Source: a phage
Sequence record: PV636260.1
Direction: 5' to 3' (one strand)
DNA: 48,147 nucleotides
The notes beneath the pieces are model-generated. The model had not been told where the DNA came from, made no database searches, and was given only the letters and a program-made list of their open reading frames with translations. A program made the position numbers and the translations under genes. Positions 25,334-47,053 of the stretch are shown here, one piece after another (the stretch's first letter is position 1; every line of letters starts with the position of its first letter).

Positions 25334-25519
25334 TTAAATCTCCTTAATTAATTCAATGTTTATTTTGTGAGTGTCAAGGTTTGCGCCGGAAAGTTTTTTG
25401 GCTTTCGTGATGGCTTCTGCCTGACTGGTTGCTGATAATTCAGTCTCGAAAGATTGTTTGCATGATTGGCAAAACATCCCCATCTTTCGAATGATTAATT
25501 TAACTTTGAATCGCTTCAT
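25334..25519 (-). CDS. hypothetical protein
   Basis: ORF in operon context. Confidence 0.5.
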   Translation of the reverse strand: MKRFKVKLIIRKMGMFCQSCKQSFETELSATSQAEAITKAKKLSGANLDTHKINIELIKEI

Positions 25520-25661
25520 CTTCTTGCGCCTTAATCATAACGCCATCGATGCGACCAATAACGGCCTCTCCAGGATTTAATCGCTTTTTATAACGAGTCG
25601 TTTTGCCGTTGCGAGTTACTTTAATTTCGATTTTGACTGATTCGTCTTTGATATTTTGCAT
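25500..25661 (-). CDS. hypothetical small basic protein (53 aa, not in ORF track)
   Basis: ATG 25661 with RBS GAGGA 8 nt upstream; MQNIKDESVKIEIKV... Confidence 0.45.
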   Translation of the reverse strand: MQNIKDESVKIEIKVTRNGKTTRYKKRLNPGEAVIGRIDGVMIKAQEDEAIQS

Positions 25662-26837: not shown

Positions 26838-26887
26838 GGTGACTATATCAAATCACCCCACCGACGTTTTAGCAATTAGTGCTATTT
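26838..26887 (-). promoter_or_regulatory. repeated element (ATAGCACTAATTGCTAAAAC) plus hairpin with -10-like TATAGT
   Basis: Stop codon TAG of the kinase gene lies inside the element; hairpin GGTGA-N10-TCACC. Confidence 0.55.
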
Positions 26888-28132: not shown

Positions 28133-28181
28133 GGGCACTATATCAAATGCCCTTGAGCAAGTTTTAGCAATTCGTGCTATT
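28133..28181 (-). promoter_or_regulatory. repeated element (ATAGCACGAATTGCTAAAAC) plus hairpin with TATAGT
   Basis: Hairpin GGGCA-N10-TGCCC; element abuts the stop codon of 28180..28626. Confidence 0.55.
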
Positions 28182-28651: not shown

Positions 28652-28700
28652 GGGGAATCATAGCGCATTCCCCTTGATAGGTTTTAGCAATTCGTGCTAT
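28652..28700 (-). promoter_or_regulatory. repeated element plus hairpin with TATGAT
   Basis: ATAGCACGAATTGCTAAAAC; hairpin GGGGAAT-N8-ATTCCCC. Confidence 0.55.
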
Positions 28701-28902: not shown

Positions 28903-29010
28903 AAAACACCCTTAAGAGATAATGTCAGGACCAGGAGGCAGAATAGCAACTCCTGAAATGATGGCGGCTCGTTATTCCAGTTAGAAAAGTCTGGCATAGT
29001 GTTTTCTCCA

Positions 29011-29040
29011 AAAGAAAGGGGAACCGCTCAGAGTCGATTC
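29011..29040 (-). terminator. terminator-like hairpin downstream of 29051..29689
   Basis: GGGGAATCGACTCTGAGCGGTTCCCC then TTTCTTTT on minus strand. Confidence 0.5.
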
Positions 29041-29050
29041 CCCGTTAAAA

Positions 29051-29689
29051 TTACATGATGAACAATAGCGAAATCGAAGCGACCAAGAGAACAATCGCAA
29101 TAGCCAGGCCAGACAAGTCTGCTTTCTCTTCAAACTTCAGTGCTGGCTTGCGGTCAGCATTAATAGGCTTGACGTTGCTAATCTTGCTGGTGTTGATCTT
29201 GCCGTTGGCGCGGAAGGTGCGCTTGCGCTTCTTGCCGAACGTTGCAAACTTAGTGCCGCCGCTATTCCAGCGAAGACCCTCTCCGTTGTGCGTTACGGTT
29301 GCAATGCGGTTGCGGCCCGTGTCGTCGGTAATTACAGCCGTGTGCTTAGCGTGCTCAGAGGGAACGTCGTAAATTTTGCCAACAGTAAATTTTTTGGTGT
29401 TATCGCTGATACATTCGAATTTCATAAATTTTACCTCTTTATTATGCAGTTGGTTGATTGCTTCGATTACGTCGTTAAATTTAACACCATCCACGATTCG
29501 ATGGAAGATATATTTTGAACTGCCGCCATACGGAAGGAAGATCTCCTGATATTCGTGACGCCGTACAACGTTTACGTTACTACCGTACTCATCAACTATA
29601 ACGAAGCTGTCGTCATTGACGCGAGCGCCTTCGTAGATTTTGCCGTACTTAAAACCAGATCCTATACTTGATACGCATTCAAATTTCAT
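29051..29689 (-). CDS. tail-anchored membrane protein with tandem duplicated domain
   Basis: Two repeats starting MKFEC(V/I)S...GKIY; basic linker; C-terminal TM helix LSGLAIAIVLLVASISLLFIM. Confidence 0.55.
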   Translation of the reverse strand: MKFECVSSIGSGFKYGKIYEGARVNDDSFVIVDEYGSNVNVVRRHEYQEIFLPYGGSSKYIFHRIVDGVKFNDVIEAINQLHNKEVKFMKFECISDNTKKFTVGKIYDVPSEHAKHTAVITDDTGRNRIATVTHNGEGLRWNSGGTKFATFGKKRKRTFRANGKINTSKISNVKPINADRKPALKFEEKADLSGLAIAIVLLVASISLLFIM

Positions 29690-29973
29690 GGTCTAACCTT
29701 CCTGTAAGGCTTGATTGATAACATCACGTATTGCGTGAAGTCGCATTCTTGCTCGTCATACCCGCGATTGATGTATGGCGTCACATCGGTAACATCGGAT
29801 ACCCTGGCGTGAACTTCCCACCCGGTAAACTCACCGCGATCGAACTCGCGTAGCTCCAGAATATCGCCAGGCCGGAAGTTTCGATCATTGACGCGGAACT
29901 CTGCCGTTTTGGTGCCGTTCATTACTCCAATAAAATGTACCGTGTTGATCTTAAGTTTGTGAATATTGCTCAT
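29686..29973 (-). CDS. ASCH-domain protein
   Basis: GxKxxExR signature (NGTKTAEFR) near N-terminus. Confidence 0.55.
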   Translation of the reverse strand: MSNIHKLKINTVHFIGVMNGTKTAEFRVNDRNFRPGDILELREFDRGEFTGWEVHARVSDVTDVTPYINRGYDEQECDFTQYVMLSIKPYRKVRP

Positions 29974-30163
29974 CTTCCTTCACCTCGAATGTTACGTTCC
30001 AAAATTTATTGCCGCAAGAATGATAGGTTACGTCATGCGGAGTTAGTTCGTGCAATGCATGACCGATGATTTCCATGCGATCGTTCGGTGCCAGGCATCG
30101 AAGTGATTCACGAAGGCGTGAAGCCTTGTCGTAAATCTGCCACTGCGTGAGTCGTGTAGCCAT
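29951..30163 (-). CDS. hypothetical protein (start revised to ATG 30163)
   Basis: Strong RBS AAGGAA before internal ATG; the track start is a TTG. Confidence 0.45.
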   Translation of the reverse strand: MATRLTQWQIYDKASRLRESLRCLAPNDRMEIIGHALHELTPHDVTYHSCGNKFWNVTFEVKEDEQYSQT

Positions 30164-30173
30164 AGCTAATTCC

Positions 30174-30251
30174 TTATTTGCAAAATGGGCAGGTTGATTT
30201 ATTTCCGCTGCCACCATGATTAGGGCAGCACAATTTCTCAATTGGCGTCAT
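30174..30251 (-). CDS. 25-aa Cys-rich mini-protein (not in ORF track)
   Basis: RBS GAGGAA 7 nt before ATG; MTPIEKLCCPNHGGSGNKSTCPFCK; stop TAA overlaps the next RBS. Confidence 0.35.
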   Translation of the reverse strand: MTPIEKLCCPNHGGSGNKSTCPFCK

Positions 30252-30285
30252 AACTGATTCCTCTGATTGGTTGCCATGCTTCAAT

Positions 30286-30335
30286 AAGGCCACTATATCA
30301 AATGGCCTTGCGGAAGGTTTAGCAATTCGTGCTAT
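30286..30335 (-). promoter_or_regulatory. repeated element plus hairpin with TATAGT
   Basis: ATAGCACGAATTGCTAAAC; hairpin AAGGCCA-N10-TGGCCTT. Confidence 0.55.
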
Positions 30336-30481
30336 CGTTTAACACACATTGTTTTTACTTCGTATCCGAACGGCTTGTTTTCTGCAATTACTTCACGAGC
30401 TTTGTTACATGATTGCTGACTCTCCATGTATACGTGATCCGGCCCGGTGCTCATCAGTATAATCAATACCCATGCAGCCAT
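30332..30481 (-). CDS. 49-aa hypothetical protein with hydrophobic N-terminus (not in ORF track)
   Basis: TAATG coupling to upstream gene, RBS GGTGA; stop TAG is the TAG of the repeated element. Confidence 0.4.
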   Translation of the reverse strand: MAAWVLIILMSTGPDHVYMESQQSCNKAREVIAENKPFGYEVKTMCVKR

Positions 30482-30987
30482 TATTTCACCTCGTAGCGTA
30501 CAAGCGTTCCGCGCTTAATGCTGATTTCACCTGATACCGTATTGTTCTTGAAGCTGCCGTGATGCAATAGAAGCGTGATGATATCGTCGTGCACCTCAAT
30601 AGTTTTTGGTATCGCGGTAATCTCAACCCAAGAATCGCTGCTAATCTGGACACCTTTTAGCTTTGCGCTAAGTGGCATGTTCTCGATCTGAGAGCACTGT
30701 ATAGACGGCTTGATTTCTGGCTTTGCAGCTTTGAATATCGAGCCTTCAATCTTCCAGCTATAATACAAGCTGTAAGCATTATGACCGTCACTCATAATGT
30801 AGTGGTAGTCCTTATTTGGTGAGTTTTCTTTATTCACTTCATTATGTCTGGCAATAAACCACTCCAGATTAAGCTGCGACACCTTATCAGTGGCCCATGT
30901 ACCCTTATCTTTATCGGTGAACGTAATTTCACCACATCCCATGCTGATAAATTTGATCGGGAATTTAACGTCTTCTAATTTCAACAT
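30481..30987 (-). CDS. hypothetical protein
   Basis: ORF preceded by element, hairpin and RBS AAGAGGAAA. Confidence 0.55.
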   Translation of the reverse strand: MLKLEDVKFPIKFISMGCGEITFTDKDKGTWATDKVSQLNLEWFIARHNEVNKENSPNKDYHYIMSDGHNAYSLYYSWKIEGSIFKAAKPEIKPSIQCSQIENMPLSAKLKGVQISSDSWVEITAIPKTIEVHDDIITLLLHHGSFKNNTVSGEISIKRGTLVRYEVK

Positions 30988-31013
30988 AATGATTTCCTCT
31001 TAGTGGTTGATGT

Positions 31014-31061
31014 GGGATTGTACCAGTCAGGACGAATCCCCTTTTAACAATTCGTGCTTAG
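31014..31061 (-). promoter_or_regulatory. repeated element (AGCACGAATTGTTAAAAG) plus hairpin with TACAAT
   Basis: Sequence match and position. Confidence 0.5.
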
Positions 31062-31552
31062 TAGACTAGCTCGCACTCAATAGAGAACGGTTCGGAGTCG
31101 CGATGGAAGAAGCAAAGTGACTCTTTATTCATCCCACCCCAAAAACCTACAGCATTGAGTTGTTCATTGCCAACGTAAGCTAGGGTGCTGGTAATTTCCT
31201 CAAAGTCAACAATAACCGGGAACGTGCGATTCTCATAACCAGGGCGCATAGGATACCCGCCATTGTTGAGAAGTCGAACCTTGCGCGGCTTGATGTTTGC
31301 CTGGACTTCCCATTTAAAAAAGAACATCGTTCCGTCCTTCTCGTTGAAGTCAGCCGGGCCAAATGCCGGACTAACCGATAGGCCGTAATCAAGATCGTAC
31401 ACGCCAGCTTTAACCAGGTCATCGACCTTTACGCGGTAGCCACCGCCGCCCAAGCTATCATCGCACTTCACCGCGTCAACGATAATCGGGTCTGATTCCA
31501 GGTCGCGAGTAAAGCCTTTGTAACCGCCAGTGCACAGTAATTTAATTTTCAT
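31058..31552 (-). CDS. hypothetical protein (start revised to ATG 31552)
   Basis: RBS GAGGACGAGAG; the longer track ORF would run through the regulatory element. Confidence 0.5.
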   Translation of the reverse strand: MKIKLLCTGGYKGFTRDLESDPIIVDAVKCDDSLGGGGYRVKVDDLVKAGVYDLDYGLSVSPAFGPADFNEKDGTMFFFKWEVQANIKPRKVRLLNNGGYPMRPGYENRTFPVIVDFEEITSTLAYVGNEQLNAVGFWGGMNKESLCFFHRDSEPFSIECELVY

Positions 31553-31577
31553 GCTCTCGTCCTCATTCGTTGTCGAT

Positions 31578-31629
31578 GTGGTTACTATATCGCAACCACA
31601 TGATCGCGTTTTAACAAAAAGTGCTATTT
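31578..31629 (-). promoter_or_regulatory. repeated element (ATAGCACTTTTTGTTAAAAC) plus hairpin with TATAGT
   Basis: Hairpin GTGGTT-N10-AACCAC. Confidence 0.55.
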
Positions 31630-31863
31630 CATCAGAGTGAAGCAACGAATCTCGTTTGGCTTAAAGATGAATGTCTGTATGCCATTGATAAGACCTGCGT
31701 GAATAACTTCGAACCCAAACTCTTTCTTTACATACCTTACAAATTCGAAGGTTGTACGATAATCACCATTGAATCCAAACGTCTCGGGGTTAAGCTGGAA
31801 TGCTTCGCCTGGGTTTAGTCGCATCAAGATACCTTTCAGGGCGTCATGCTTAATTTTGCTCAT
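31624..31863 (-). CDS. hypothetical protein
   Basis: ORF in operon. Confidence 0.5.
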   Translation of the reverse strand: MSKIKHDALKGILMRLNPGEAFQLNPETFGFNGDYRTTFEFVRYVKKEFGFEVIHAGLINGIQTFIFKPNEIRCFTLMK

Positions 31864-31865
31864 GA

Positions 31866-32441
31866 TTACTTCTCCTCATCCAGTAAATGCGAGCGGAATT
31901 GCTCGACCAGCTTGTTGAGATCGGATACCGAGATATTGCTGCCTTCAAAATCCCTCAAATCGATTCTGAACGCTTCAACCTTCGCATTGAACACGTCGGC
32001 TATGCTCTTTCGCTTCCGACCTCTCTTGCCCTGTTTAGCTTCGCATATGACCTTCTTCGCTTCCTCACCTTCTAGTTCGGTTATGAATATCGTCACCCCG
32101 TCAACCTGATCGCGGTTGATTCGCACAGATACGGCCTTATTGTGCACCTTGAGCATGTGGCGCTTGATGATATTGGACACATACGACGCGGTGAGTCGTT
32201 CTAGCAACCAGGCTGATCGAGATGTGTACTCGTTAACGACTGCCTCATCAATCTGGTCATCGTTAAGTTCCACGCCATGAGTAGCCTTTACAATCTCGGC
32301 CTGCTCATTGACGTACACTTCAACCATTTGCTTTCCGGTGATTGAGAACTCATTCCCTGATTGGTTGATTTCAATCGCCTTTCGAATATAGTCCGGCAGG
32401 TTGAGTTCAAATTCTGTCACTTCTTTAAGCTGAGTTTTCAC
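31866..32441 (-). CDS. hypothetical protein, first gene of the leftward early operon
   Basis: GTG start after GAGGT; 191 aa. Confidence 0.5.
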   Translation of the reverse strand: MKTQLKEVTEFELNLPDYIRKAIEINQSGNEFSITGKQMVEVYVNEQAEIVKATHGVELNDDQIDEAVVNEYTSRSAWLLERLTASYVSNIIKRHMLKVHNKAVSVRINRDQVDGVTIFITELEGEEAKKVICEAKQGKRGRKRKSIADVFNAKVEAFRIDLRDFEGSNISVSDLNKLVEQFRSHLLDEEK

Positions 32442-34866: not shown

Positions 34867-35187
34867 ATGAACCACACTTACAAAATCACAACGAAGTCAC
34901 CGAAGATTAACGGAAGCACGGTTGCGGCACTGAATAACGCGGCGGCAATTCACGAAAAAAATATCATGGAGCGCGTGAAGGCGGCGGTAGGTAGATTCTA
35001 CGGGATCAATGCCGACATTGCCGACAGCAAGCGACTGTTCAAATACGTTCCAGGTCATCCATATGGCAGGATGATTGATATCAAGCATGAAAAAGAATTG
35101 GTTCGAATCGGATCGCTAAGCATTGATGAGTTCGATCATAGCATCAACCTGGTGACGGCGTATCAAACTTGGGACGGTAAAAAATGA
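34867..35187 (+). CDS. hypothetical protein
   Basis: RBS AAGGGGGAG. Confidence 0.55.
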   Translation: MNHTYKITTKSPKINGSTVAALNNAAAIHEKNIMERVKAAVGRFYGINADIADSKRLFKYVPGHPYGRMIDIKHEKELVRIGSLSIDEFDHSINLVTAYQTWDGKK

Positions 35188-35327
35188 TTTATATTCACAC
35201 TTTCTATACTGGCAAATTTAACAACGTAAAAAATGTTCGCGTTTACGATAGCCACCAAAAAGCAATGATGCAGAAAGTAGTTCTAGGCGGCACAACCAAA
35301 GAGTGCAAAGTAATTTCTGAGTACTGA
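35184..35327 (+). CDS. 47-aa hypothetical protein (not in ORF track)
   Basis: ATGA coupling with upstream stop; stop TGA immediately before the repeated element. Confidence 0.4.
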   Translation: MIYIHTFYTGKFNNVKNVRVYDSHQKAMMQKVVLGGTTKECKVISEY

Positions 35328-35378
35328 TAGCACGAATAGCTAAAGACAATCAGCAAGGGAGTAAGGTATATTACTCCC
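35327..35378 (+). promoter_or_regulatory. repeated element (ATAGCACGAATAGCTAAAG) plus hairpin with TATATT
   Basis: Hairpin GGGAGTA-N8-TACTCCC. Confidence 0.5.
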
Positions 35379-39740: not shown

Positions 39741-39917
39741 TTAATCTATCGCAATAAATTCCAGGTAGTGACCGTTCAGAGGCGCTTGGATTGCTGAACC
39801 TCGCCCGTCGTAAATCTCAAATAATCCCCCACAGAAATCATAACCAACACTATAGATCTGATTTACACGGAATGGAAGTGTCTTGGAGTCATTTCGGATG
39901 CACTTAACTAGCTTCAT
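39741..39917 (-). CDS. 58-aa hypothetical protein (not in ORF track)
   Basis: RBS AAAGAGG before ATG 39917; preceded by repeated element and hairpin. Confidence 0.45.
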   Translation of the reverse strand: MKLVKCIRNDSKTLPFRVNQIYSVGYDFCGGLFEIYDGRGSAIQAPLNGHYLEFIAID

Positions 39918-47010: not shown

Positions 47011-47053
47011 ATAGCACAATGATAAAATCAGCGTTTAGCAATTCGTGCTATTT
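47011..47053. promoter_or_regulatory. head-to-head pair of repeated elements upstream of the tail fiber gene
   Basis: ATAGCACAATGATAAAATC (plus) and the complement of ATAGCACGAATTGCTAAAC; then RBS AAGGAG and ATG 47072. Confidence 0.5.

Follow-up and report, generated by a model that had tools for sequence, protein, structure and literature searches.

A conserved 25-codon accessory gene, predicted to encode a zinc-knuckle microprotein, in T1-like and other enterobacterial phages

The small genes at the locus

The 48,147-nt stretch of DNA in record PV636260.1, hereafter the window, belongs to a T1-like coliphage (Drexlerviridae, Tunavirus), and we analyzed five of its very small open reading frames (ORFs), named p25, p49, p53, p58, and p47 after their lengths in codons. 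Two of them, p25 and p49, lie in one interval flanked by genes on the minus strand. A megablast search with positions 29000–32000 retrieved 254 phage records, the closest being Escherichia phage AV106 (91.6% identity), followed by other T1-like phages.

A preliminary description of the window had presented the five ORFs as unlisted small genes. They are indeed missing from its ORF track, owing to a 60-amino acid cut-off, but p49, p53, p58, and p47 are annotated in T1 (NC_005833) and in AV106, so the label does not apply to them beyond that track. All five ORFs exist at their assigned positions, and the ribosome-binding sites attributed to them can be read there as well. A Shine-Dalgarno (SD)-like sequence precedes each ATG by 6–8 nt: GAGGAA for p25, GAGGTG for p49, AGAGGA for p53, AGAGG for p58, and a weaker one for p47. 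Coupled starts and stops, likewise claimed for these genes, are present too. The p49 ATG and the stop of the upstream 168-amino acid gene have base 30481 in common (TAATG), the p47 ATG and the stop of the preceding 106-amino acid ORF overlap (ATGA), the SD of the gene after p25 (TAAGGA) includes the p25 stop TAA, and p53 overlaps its neighbor by 20 nt. Conservation of the reading frames in relatives had been set in advance as the test of the proposal; all five frames are conserved, and we therefore consider all five to be real genes.

The p25 ORF occupies 30174–30251 on the minus strand (25 codons and TAA; MTPIEKLCCPNHGGSGNKSTCPFCK) and would encode a Cys-rich microprotein. Its SD, GAGGAA, is at 30258–30263 (minus strand), 6 nt 5′ of the ATG, and equivalent SDs at 7–8 nt precede p25 in the contexts of phages TLS, BrunoManser, Skate, and LL5 and of the Klebsiella phages. 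Directly 3′ of p25 is a 70-amino acid gene (29951–30163, minus strand; MATRLTQWQ...; phrog_18601), which is absent from T1 and whose SD overlaps the p25 stop codon.

We aligned this region with AV106, phage SA12KD, and 12 relatives in IMG/VR that were found through the downstream 70-amino acid gene. In the window and AV106 there are 88 additional nt, containing the whole p25 ORF and a second SD, that most relatives lack. Four of these relatives (loci L002–L005) read GAGGAATCAG(C/T)TATGGCTACACGA, without p25, and in most relatives GAGGAATCAG(C/T)TATG leads straight into the 70-amino acid gene. The 88-nt segment is bracketed by two 15-nt direct repeats that are identical at 12 of 15 positions, both on the minus strand: the downstream copy (AAGGAATTAGCTATG, 30161–30175) comprises the SD and ATG of the 70-amino acid gene, and the upstream copy (GAGGAATCAGTTATG, 30249–30263) comprises the SD and ATG of p25. 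At the DNA level the segment is found in only nine records, as against the 254 that match the surrounding 3 kb: AV106, Sfin-1 (two accessions), Sfin-2, Sfin-4, Sfin-5, Sfin-6, IME-JL8, and BrunoManser.

The same insertion point holds a different gene in two IMG/VR relatives (L009 and L013; 3300045988_004116 and 2974585480_000001, at about 1270–1505), where a 78-amino acid Cys-rich ORF (MIIVNKETGE...CKAPGCGN...CSKSCAA...) unrelated in sequence to p25 may encode a small zinc protein; this ORF has no match in Pfam.

Evidence that p25 is a protein-coding gene

Among 31 instances of p25, comprising 22 unique DNA sequences, the ORF always begins with ATG and is exactly 25 codons long. Instances were gathered in part with a degenerate DNA pattern, in which 9 of the 25 codons were fixed and which yielded 17 IMG/VR loci and eight real metagenome loci. 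In the 22 unique sequences, variable columns fall at the first, second, and third codon positions in the ratio 5/5/24, and pooled Nei-Gojobori proportions of synonymous (pS) and nonsynonymous (pN) differences are 0.74 and 0.077, respectively (pN/pS ~0.10). Both other forward frames are interrupted by stops in 22 of 22 sequences. Mean identity is 77% for nucleotides and 86% for amino acids; random placement of the same changes gives 55% amino acid identity, and the observed value was reached in 0 of 20,000 such simulations. The position of the stop is constant, with TAA, TAG, and TGA all in use there. Purifying selection, fixed start and stop positions, an SD 6–8 nt upstream in the siphovirus contexts, and protein-level conservation far above that of the DNA indicate that p25 is a real protein-coding gene under strong selection of this kind. 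The Cys-rich mini-protein singled out in the preliminary description is thus borne out, with a sequence conserved at the protein level in ~139 phage records.

Could the frame instead be a chance opening in an intergenic regulatory region, or the decayed remnant of a larger gene? p25 is unannotated in nearly all records, it lies between the next gene and a stem-loop that is a terminator in the SA12KD annotation, RNA folding places a small hairpin within the window ORF, and L009 and L013 have a larger Cys-rich ORF in the same slot. None of this fits well with the pattern of substitutions across codon positions, which effectively refutes the idea, or with a constant length that ends in three different stop codons at one position. 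Folding 11 diverse p25 copies together gave a weak consensus structure (−5.5 kcal/mol) without compensatory pairs, so the hairpin is not a conserved feature; with that fold, and with no terminator or promoter called, we rejected an RNA structure or terminator as the function of the ORF. No longer homolog exists among 1.84 billion representative proteins, and the 78-amino acid ORF is unrelated. As for annotation, the minimum gene length of Prodigal is 90 nt, and at 78 nt p25 falls below it, which would explain why it is missing. We give a non-genic origin almost no credence.

p25 matches no family in Pfam, PHROGs, or NCBIfam. Sequence and profile searches of the PDB returned nothing meaningful, the best match being a human zinc finger linker and knuckle at E = 1.1, and no mention of the peptide sequence turned up in a literature search. 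When 5.8 billion clustered proteins were searched with a tandem query built from two family members, only four p25 clusters emerged, all of them N-terminally over-extended calls of 38–46 amino acids. An exhaustive HMMER search of the 1.84 billion representatives added one further call of the RB43 type (named for a T4-like carrier, below) and false positives derived from repeats. The searches point to an undescribed family of conserved microproteins that belongs to no curated family.

One automated database name suggests otherwise. The 38-amino acid over-extended call P0002 (DAG79302.1) is named 'restriction alleviation protein', which would make p25 a protein of the Lar type (PF14354), and like Lar proteins it is small, encoded by phages or prophages, and cysteine-rich, with a CPFC knuckle. 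In hhalign the C-terminal KSTCPFCK of p25 pairs with VKPCPFCG of Lar at 61% probability. This alignment covers only eight columns (p25 18–25 with Lar 6–13), however, and sets the last knuckle of p25 against the first of Lar, at opposite ends of the two proteins. Neither p25 nor P0002, P0003, or the RB43 copy matches PF14354 at E ≤ 10, whereas a control Lar protein scores 53.5 bits (gathering threshold 28.6). Nor does p25 correspond to the full domain, with its N-terminal CPFCG and second CxxC: it has 25 residues, less than half of the 58 profile positions, one His ligand, and an eight-residue spacer between knuckles. Membership in Lar is therefore unsupported, and we consider it very improbable.

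A putative metal site

The consensus of the peptide is MTPIEK[ILV]CCPxHGGSGxK[ST][ST]CP[FY]CK. M1, T2, P3, E5, K6, C9, H12, G13, G14, S15, G16, C21, P22, and C24 are invariant among 15 distinct peptides. In the RB43-type copies (MTPIEKSACRKHGGSGDSFSCPFCR and MTPIEKLICRKHGGSGDSFSCPYCR) C8 and P10 are lost and C9, H12, C21, and C24 are kept. Because even these divergent copies retain the four residues, a zinc knuckle is suggested: p25 is probably a C-x2-H-x8-C-x2-C site in which two knuckles, C-P-x-H-G-G and C-P-[FY]-C, would share a single metal ion, most likely Zn2+. An AlphaFold2 model of the 39-amino acid extended form, built without metal, has a predicted local distance difference test (pLDDT) score of ~80 over the peptide. 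With two knuckle-like motifs and four invariant ligand positions, p25 resembles rubredoxin-type zinc knuckles and ribbons; it differs from them in placing the C-x2-H-x8-C-x2-C pattern in a free-standing 25 residues, for which the PDB offers no sequence, profile, or fold match.

Distribution and accessory status

A tblastn search with the 25-residue peptide matched 138–139 phage records at 76–100% identity, most over the full length. The lineages are Drexlerviridae, Skatevirus, and T4-like Pseudotevenvirus (Straboviridae); carriers include TLS, Stevie, Sazh, LL5, Skate, seszw, and Klebsiella phage RCIP0096, and, among the T4-like phages, RB43, Lw1, and CfP1. Most matches lie under no annotated feature, even in the classic phages TLS and RB43. 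Outside phage records the searches found little: a scan of 185,579 species genomes of bacteria and archaea (one each) with the DNA pattern gave three matches in high-GC organisms, all with in-frame stops and therefore due to chance, and there was no DNA match in 5,426 complete Escherichia coli genomes and no tblastn match in 72,556 plasmids. By these searches p25 is restricted to phages.

Some p25-bearing genomes of the T1/TLS-like kind (~49–50 kb) were deposited as Streptococcus phage MBBL140, Vibrio phage Vc1, and Pseudomonas phage Motto. Because these genomes resemble those of enterobacterial phages, the host labels may be wrong or reflect contamination.

The gene occurs in at least six unrelated genomic contexts, and in each one examined it fills a gap between annotated genes and has their orientation. 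In TLS it sits between gp75 and dcm, directly upstream of the latter, with a stem-loop 3′ of its stop. In Skate it is coupled to a ParB-like gene, whose stop overlaps the p25 ATG, and lies near RusA. In RCIP0096 it is placed between two hypothetical genes, and in RB43 it follows ORF138c, preceded by a nucleotidyl/cytidyltransferase gene. BrunoManser, the only phage of the BASEL collection among the matches listed, has it annotated, as a 39-amino acid protein from an upstream start.

Many records of Salmonella phage seszw match only residues 1–20 of p25. They come from the CiPGr study (PMC9825161) and represent genome-reduced mutants that form plaques. In clone 40S (L052 801–887, MZ375302) everything from codon 21 of p25 through the next gene is deleted, with MTPIEKICCPRHGGSGTKSTKQHMIKVK remaining ahead of a stop. 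The deletion thus begins within the unannotated p25 and creates a fusion ORF; as p25 was unannotated, the original study could not have scored it. Since mutants that lack the C terminus are viable, p25 is dispensable in the laboratory. p25 is accessory: it is lacking in most close relatives, its truncation is viable, and it stands in unrelated contexts in three lineages. On these grounds it behaves as a self-contained, minimal gene cassette.

The same observations bear on whether p25 might serve the phage itself, as a small zinc-finger cofactor or regulator of a methyltransferase, of a replication or recombination protein, or of transcription of its module. Small zinc fingers often bind nucleic acids, and dcm in TLS, the coupled ParB-like gene and nearby RusA in Skate, and the nucleotidyl/cytidyltransferase gene in RB43 are neighbors that such a cofactor could have. 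These neighbors are all different, however, close relatives with all core genes lack p25, and its truncation mutants survive. Moreover, the same peptide is found in siphoviruses and in T4-like myoviruses, which have very different replication and transcription machinery. We think a role internal to the phage rather unlikely.

The slot next to that of p25 provides a precedent of another kind. In Shigella phage Shfl1 (L006 1353–1430; HM035024 4233–4310) the gene-69 slot contains a TAATG-coupled 26-amino acid ORF, MSNWYNEHVMQFYRNRIKKILNSTNC. This ORF is a homolog of T4 Stp, 78% identical over residues 1–18 to T4-type genes that are annotated 'stp', 'type IC restriction inhibitor', or 'anticodon nuclease activator'. 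Stp-like ORFs, many of them without annotation, are also present in phages of the TLS, Klebsiella, and Skate types, and the TLS- and Klebsiella-type carriers of p25 hold one. In a local tblastn search with two Stp-type queries, four loci matched (L006, L024, L034, and L042); no match fell in the window or on the p25 ORF of any locus. These Stp homologs show that such small-gene slots host counter-defense peptides, although a role for p25 does not follow from them.

The repeat and stem-loop module

Between p49 and p25 the window contains a short module on the minus strand. It opens at the p49 stop codon with the core of a 21-nt repeat (GCACGAATTGCTAAA, 30318–30332, an exact match to the repeat), followed by a stem-loop predicted by RNA folding (AAGGCCAtttgatatagTGGCCTT, 30286–30309) that has an extended −10-like sequence, TGATATAGT, in its loop and 3′ arm. 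The homologous site in phage SA12KD is annotated as a rho-independent terminator; a simple promoter and terminator scan called neither at 30286–30332. The motif aTAGCAC(G/T)AATTGCTAAA was counted 19 times in the window, where 2.1 copies would be expected; every copy has the orientation of the genes around it, and the motif often begins at a stop codon. Other copies are, for example, at 28163–28177, 28683–28697, 47034–47048, 26868–26882, and 35330–35344, the last on the plus strand. Most copies are followed by a GC-rich stem-loop with a TGnTATAGT- or TATAAT-like element and then by an SD and ATG. The spacing of 22 nt from TTGCTA to TATAGT is unlike that of sigma-70 promoters. The repeat is the 21-nt intergenic repeat aaATAGCACnnnTTGnTAAAA of phage TLS, the function of which is listed as an open question (PMC11447400).

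The arrangement recalls the PeSL cassettes of T4-type phages, for which a part in modular gene shuffling has been proposed (PMC2839356, PMC4122927). As with PeSL cassettes and the TLS repeat, the small genes of the window, p25 and its neighbors included, are separated by a motif and stem-loop oriented with transcription, and close T1-like relatives differ in gene content exactly at the module boundaries. Unlike them, the Tunavirus p25 indel is bracketed by the SD/ATG repeats and not by two copies of the module, and promoter or terminator activity of the T1-like module is putative.

p25 is the first ORF after the module in the window, AV106, and BrunoManser, and this position raises the possibility that it is a cis-acting upstream ORF, a leader peptide whose translation or nascent-chain arrest would control the downstream gene while the free peptide has no role. 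Its length is close to that of known leader peptides such as TnaC, which has 24 amino acids; in the window its stop lies within the SD of the following gene (TAAGGA), and in BrunoManser and Skate the next ATG comes within 10–12 nt. But the downstream gene is different in every context; in Klebsiella-type phages a further copy of the module lies 3′ of p25, between it and the next gene, and in TLS a stem-loop follows the stop. Nearly all residues are conserved, the metal-ligand pattern among them, and plain coupling needs none of this. Close relatives, furthermore, would express the 70-amino acid gene from the same SD without p25. A leader function seems to us distinctly unlikely.

Four known T1 genes

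The other four ORFs were assigned by local tblastn searches against the annotated genomes of T1 and AV106 and by full-length matches in a PHROG profile search. By these comparisons p49, p53, p58, and p47 are T1 genes 69, 57, 14, and 4, already annotated, and hold nothing new; the window orthologs are 91–96% identical to the T1 genes and equal in length save for the last residue of p47.

p49 (30332–30481, minus strand) matches phrog_5579 over residues 1–49 (E = 1.5e-26) and is 96% identical to T1 ST69 and 98% to the AV106 coding sequence; the gene is annotated in AV106 and SA12KD. In both the window and T1 it comes directly after the orthologous upstream gene, here the 168-amino acid gene (30481–30987, minus strand; phrog_7116) to which it is translationally coupled through TAATG. 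The family is narrow, with eight clusters, all of 49 amino acids and 84–98% identical. Its N terminus had been described as hydrophobic, which could hint at membrane association or secretion. The AlphaFold2 model (pLDDT 88) is instead a globule, beta(4–10)-beta(13–19)-alpha(22–35)-beta(43–48), in which residues 4–10 form a core strand and hence not a membrane or signal segment, and we ruled that reading out. p49 is an ordinary T1 gene-69 protein, modeled as a small soluble beta-beta-alpha-beta domain. Foldseek found no significant match to this fold in the PDB; a likeness to T7 Gp2 (rank 22, E = 0.76, TM score 0.45) was set aside as too weak to use, and matches in BFVD were to uncharacterized phage proteins only.

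In phage JMPW1 (L008) the p49 homolog is interrupted by an in-frame stop in place of Cys25, in L004 its C-terminal part is diverged, and in L012 the gene is missing; close relatives therefore do not all retain p49.

p58 (39741–39917, minus strand) corresponds to T1 gene 14 (phrog_4788, E = 2.4e-33; 93% identical to T1 ST14) and matches Pfam DUF7244 (PF23896) with 99.2 bits against a cut-off of 27. It is located between a 383-amino acid exonuclease-like gene and a holin-like ORF, upstream of the holin, endolysin, and spanin genes. In a 2026 report the DUF7244 protein is described as a standalone SH3 domain that consistently accompanies the lysis cassette of Drexlerviridae (PMC13164509), and the order found here (exonuclease gene, p58, holin) agrees with the one described there. 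Of the four T1 genes, gene 14 is the only one with a proposed role (PMC13164509), and its tie to lysis speaks against the early host-takeover function that had been envisaged for the 58-amino acid protein.

p53 (25500–25661, minus strand) is the homolog of T1 gene 57 (phrog_6666, E = 3.9e-34; 92% identical to T1 ST57). Relative to the listed start of the next ORF (61 amino acids, 25334–25519), the two overlap by 20 nt at 25500–25519 on the minus strand. AV106 is annotated with the same overlap, and T1 places the start of ST56 later, without one; the true start of the 61-amino acid gene may therefore be an internal ATG. p47 (35184–35327, plus strand) is the homolog of T1 gene 4 (phrog_3955, E = 9.4e-25; 91% identical to T1 ST4).

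Interpretation

The preliminary proposal of host-takeover or anti-defense factors finds partial support: all five ORFs are genes, but four of them were known before, and p58, among those four, goes with lysis. We favor, with a probability of about 0.6, a joint reading in which p49 is ordinary and p25 is a real accessory microprotein with a metal knuckle that acts in trans on a host target. On this account p25, the first ORF beyond the repeat and stem-loop module, would be translated with an SD and ATG of its own, and the peptide would fold around one metal ion held by C9, H12, C21, and C24. Recombination, whether at short SD/ATG repeats or at repeat modules, may move the gene or remove it. Its product would act in trans on a target conserved across Escherichia, Shigella, Salmonella, Citrobacter, and Klebsiella, with a host-modulating or counter-defense role such as tiny phage peptides like T4 Stp have. 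The main rivals to a trans-acting peptide with a host target are the cis-regulatory leader and the phage-internal cofactor discussed above.

Within this reading, host takeover or anti-defense is our best guess for p25, by analogy, because the gene is accessory and horizontally spread, is dispensable in the laboratory, and has a Stp homolog in the adjacent slot of a relative. T4 Stp, an anti-restriction peptide of 26 amino acids and activator of PrrC, parallels p25 in being tiny (~25 residues), in lying among accessory genes, and in often being unannotated, or hidden under the annotation of a neighboring gene, in the records seen; its homologs extend to T1-like phages, including the one in the Shfl1 slot next to that of p25. 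The two differ in that Stp has no Cys/His metal-ligand pattern, and the local tblastn search showed no similarity of p25 to the conserved Stp residues 1–18.

Several points weigh against the reading we favor. About half of the p25 records are laboratory derivatives of seszw, which leaves ~70 independent natural occurrences, and the instances used for the codon analysis were partly collected with the DNA pattern that fixes 9 of 25 codons; when these codons are set aside and RB43 is included, the remaining 16 show a weaker skew (7/8/15, P = 0.04). Copies of the RB43 type have no obvious SD. Translation of p25 is predicted from sequence, and metal binding from the pattern of conserved residues. 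The confidence of the AlphaFold2 model is moderate, and Foldseek found no PDB fold match for it. In the contexts examined no neighboring gene consistently co-occurs with p25, and no target or phenotype was found.

More speculatively, p25 might be the founder of an undescribed class of ultra-small, metal-stabilized effectors, spread as cassettes between unrelated virulent phages and concealed from routine annotation by a length below the limits of gene callers, that neutralize a conserved enterobacterial defense or housekeeping protein; we offer this as a tentative possibility, below even odds.

p25 is among the smallest strongly conserved phage genes. Its carriers, siphoviruses as well as T4-like myoviruses, have hosts in five enterobacterial genera, and it is a concrete case of a systematic blindness to genes of fewer than 30 codons. 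The peptide is short enough for chemical synthesis. Should p25 inhibit a host defense or a host protein that is essential, it would represent a new effector of very compact size; should it not, it would still be useful for tracing the exchange of cassettes between families of phages.

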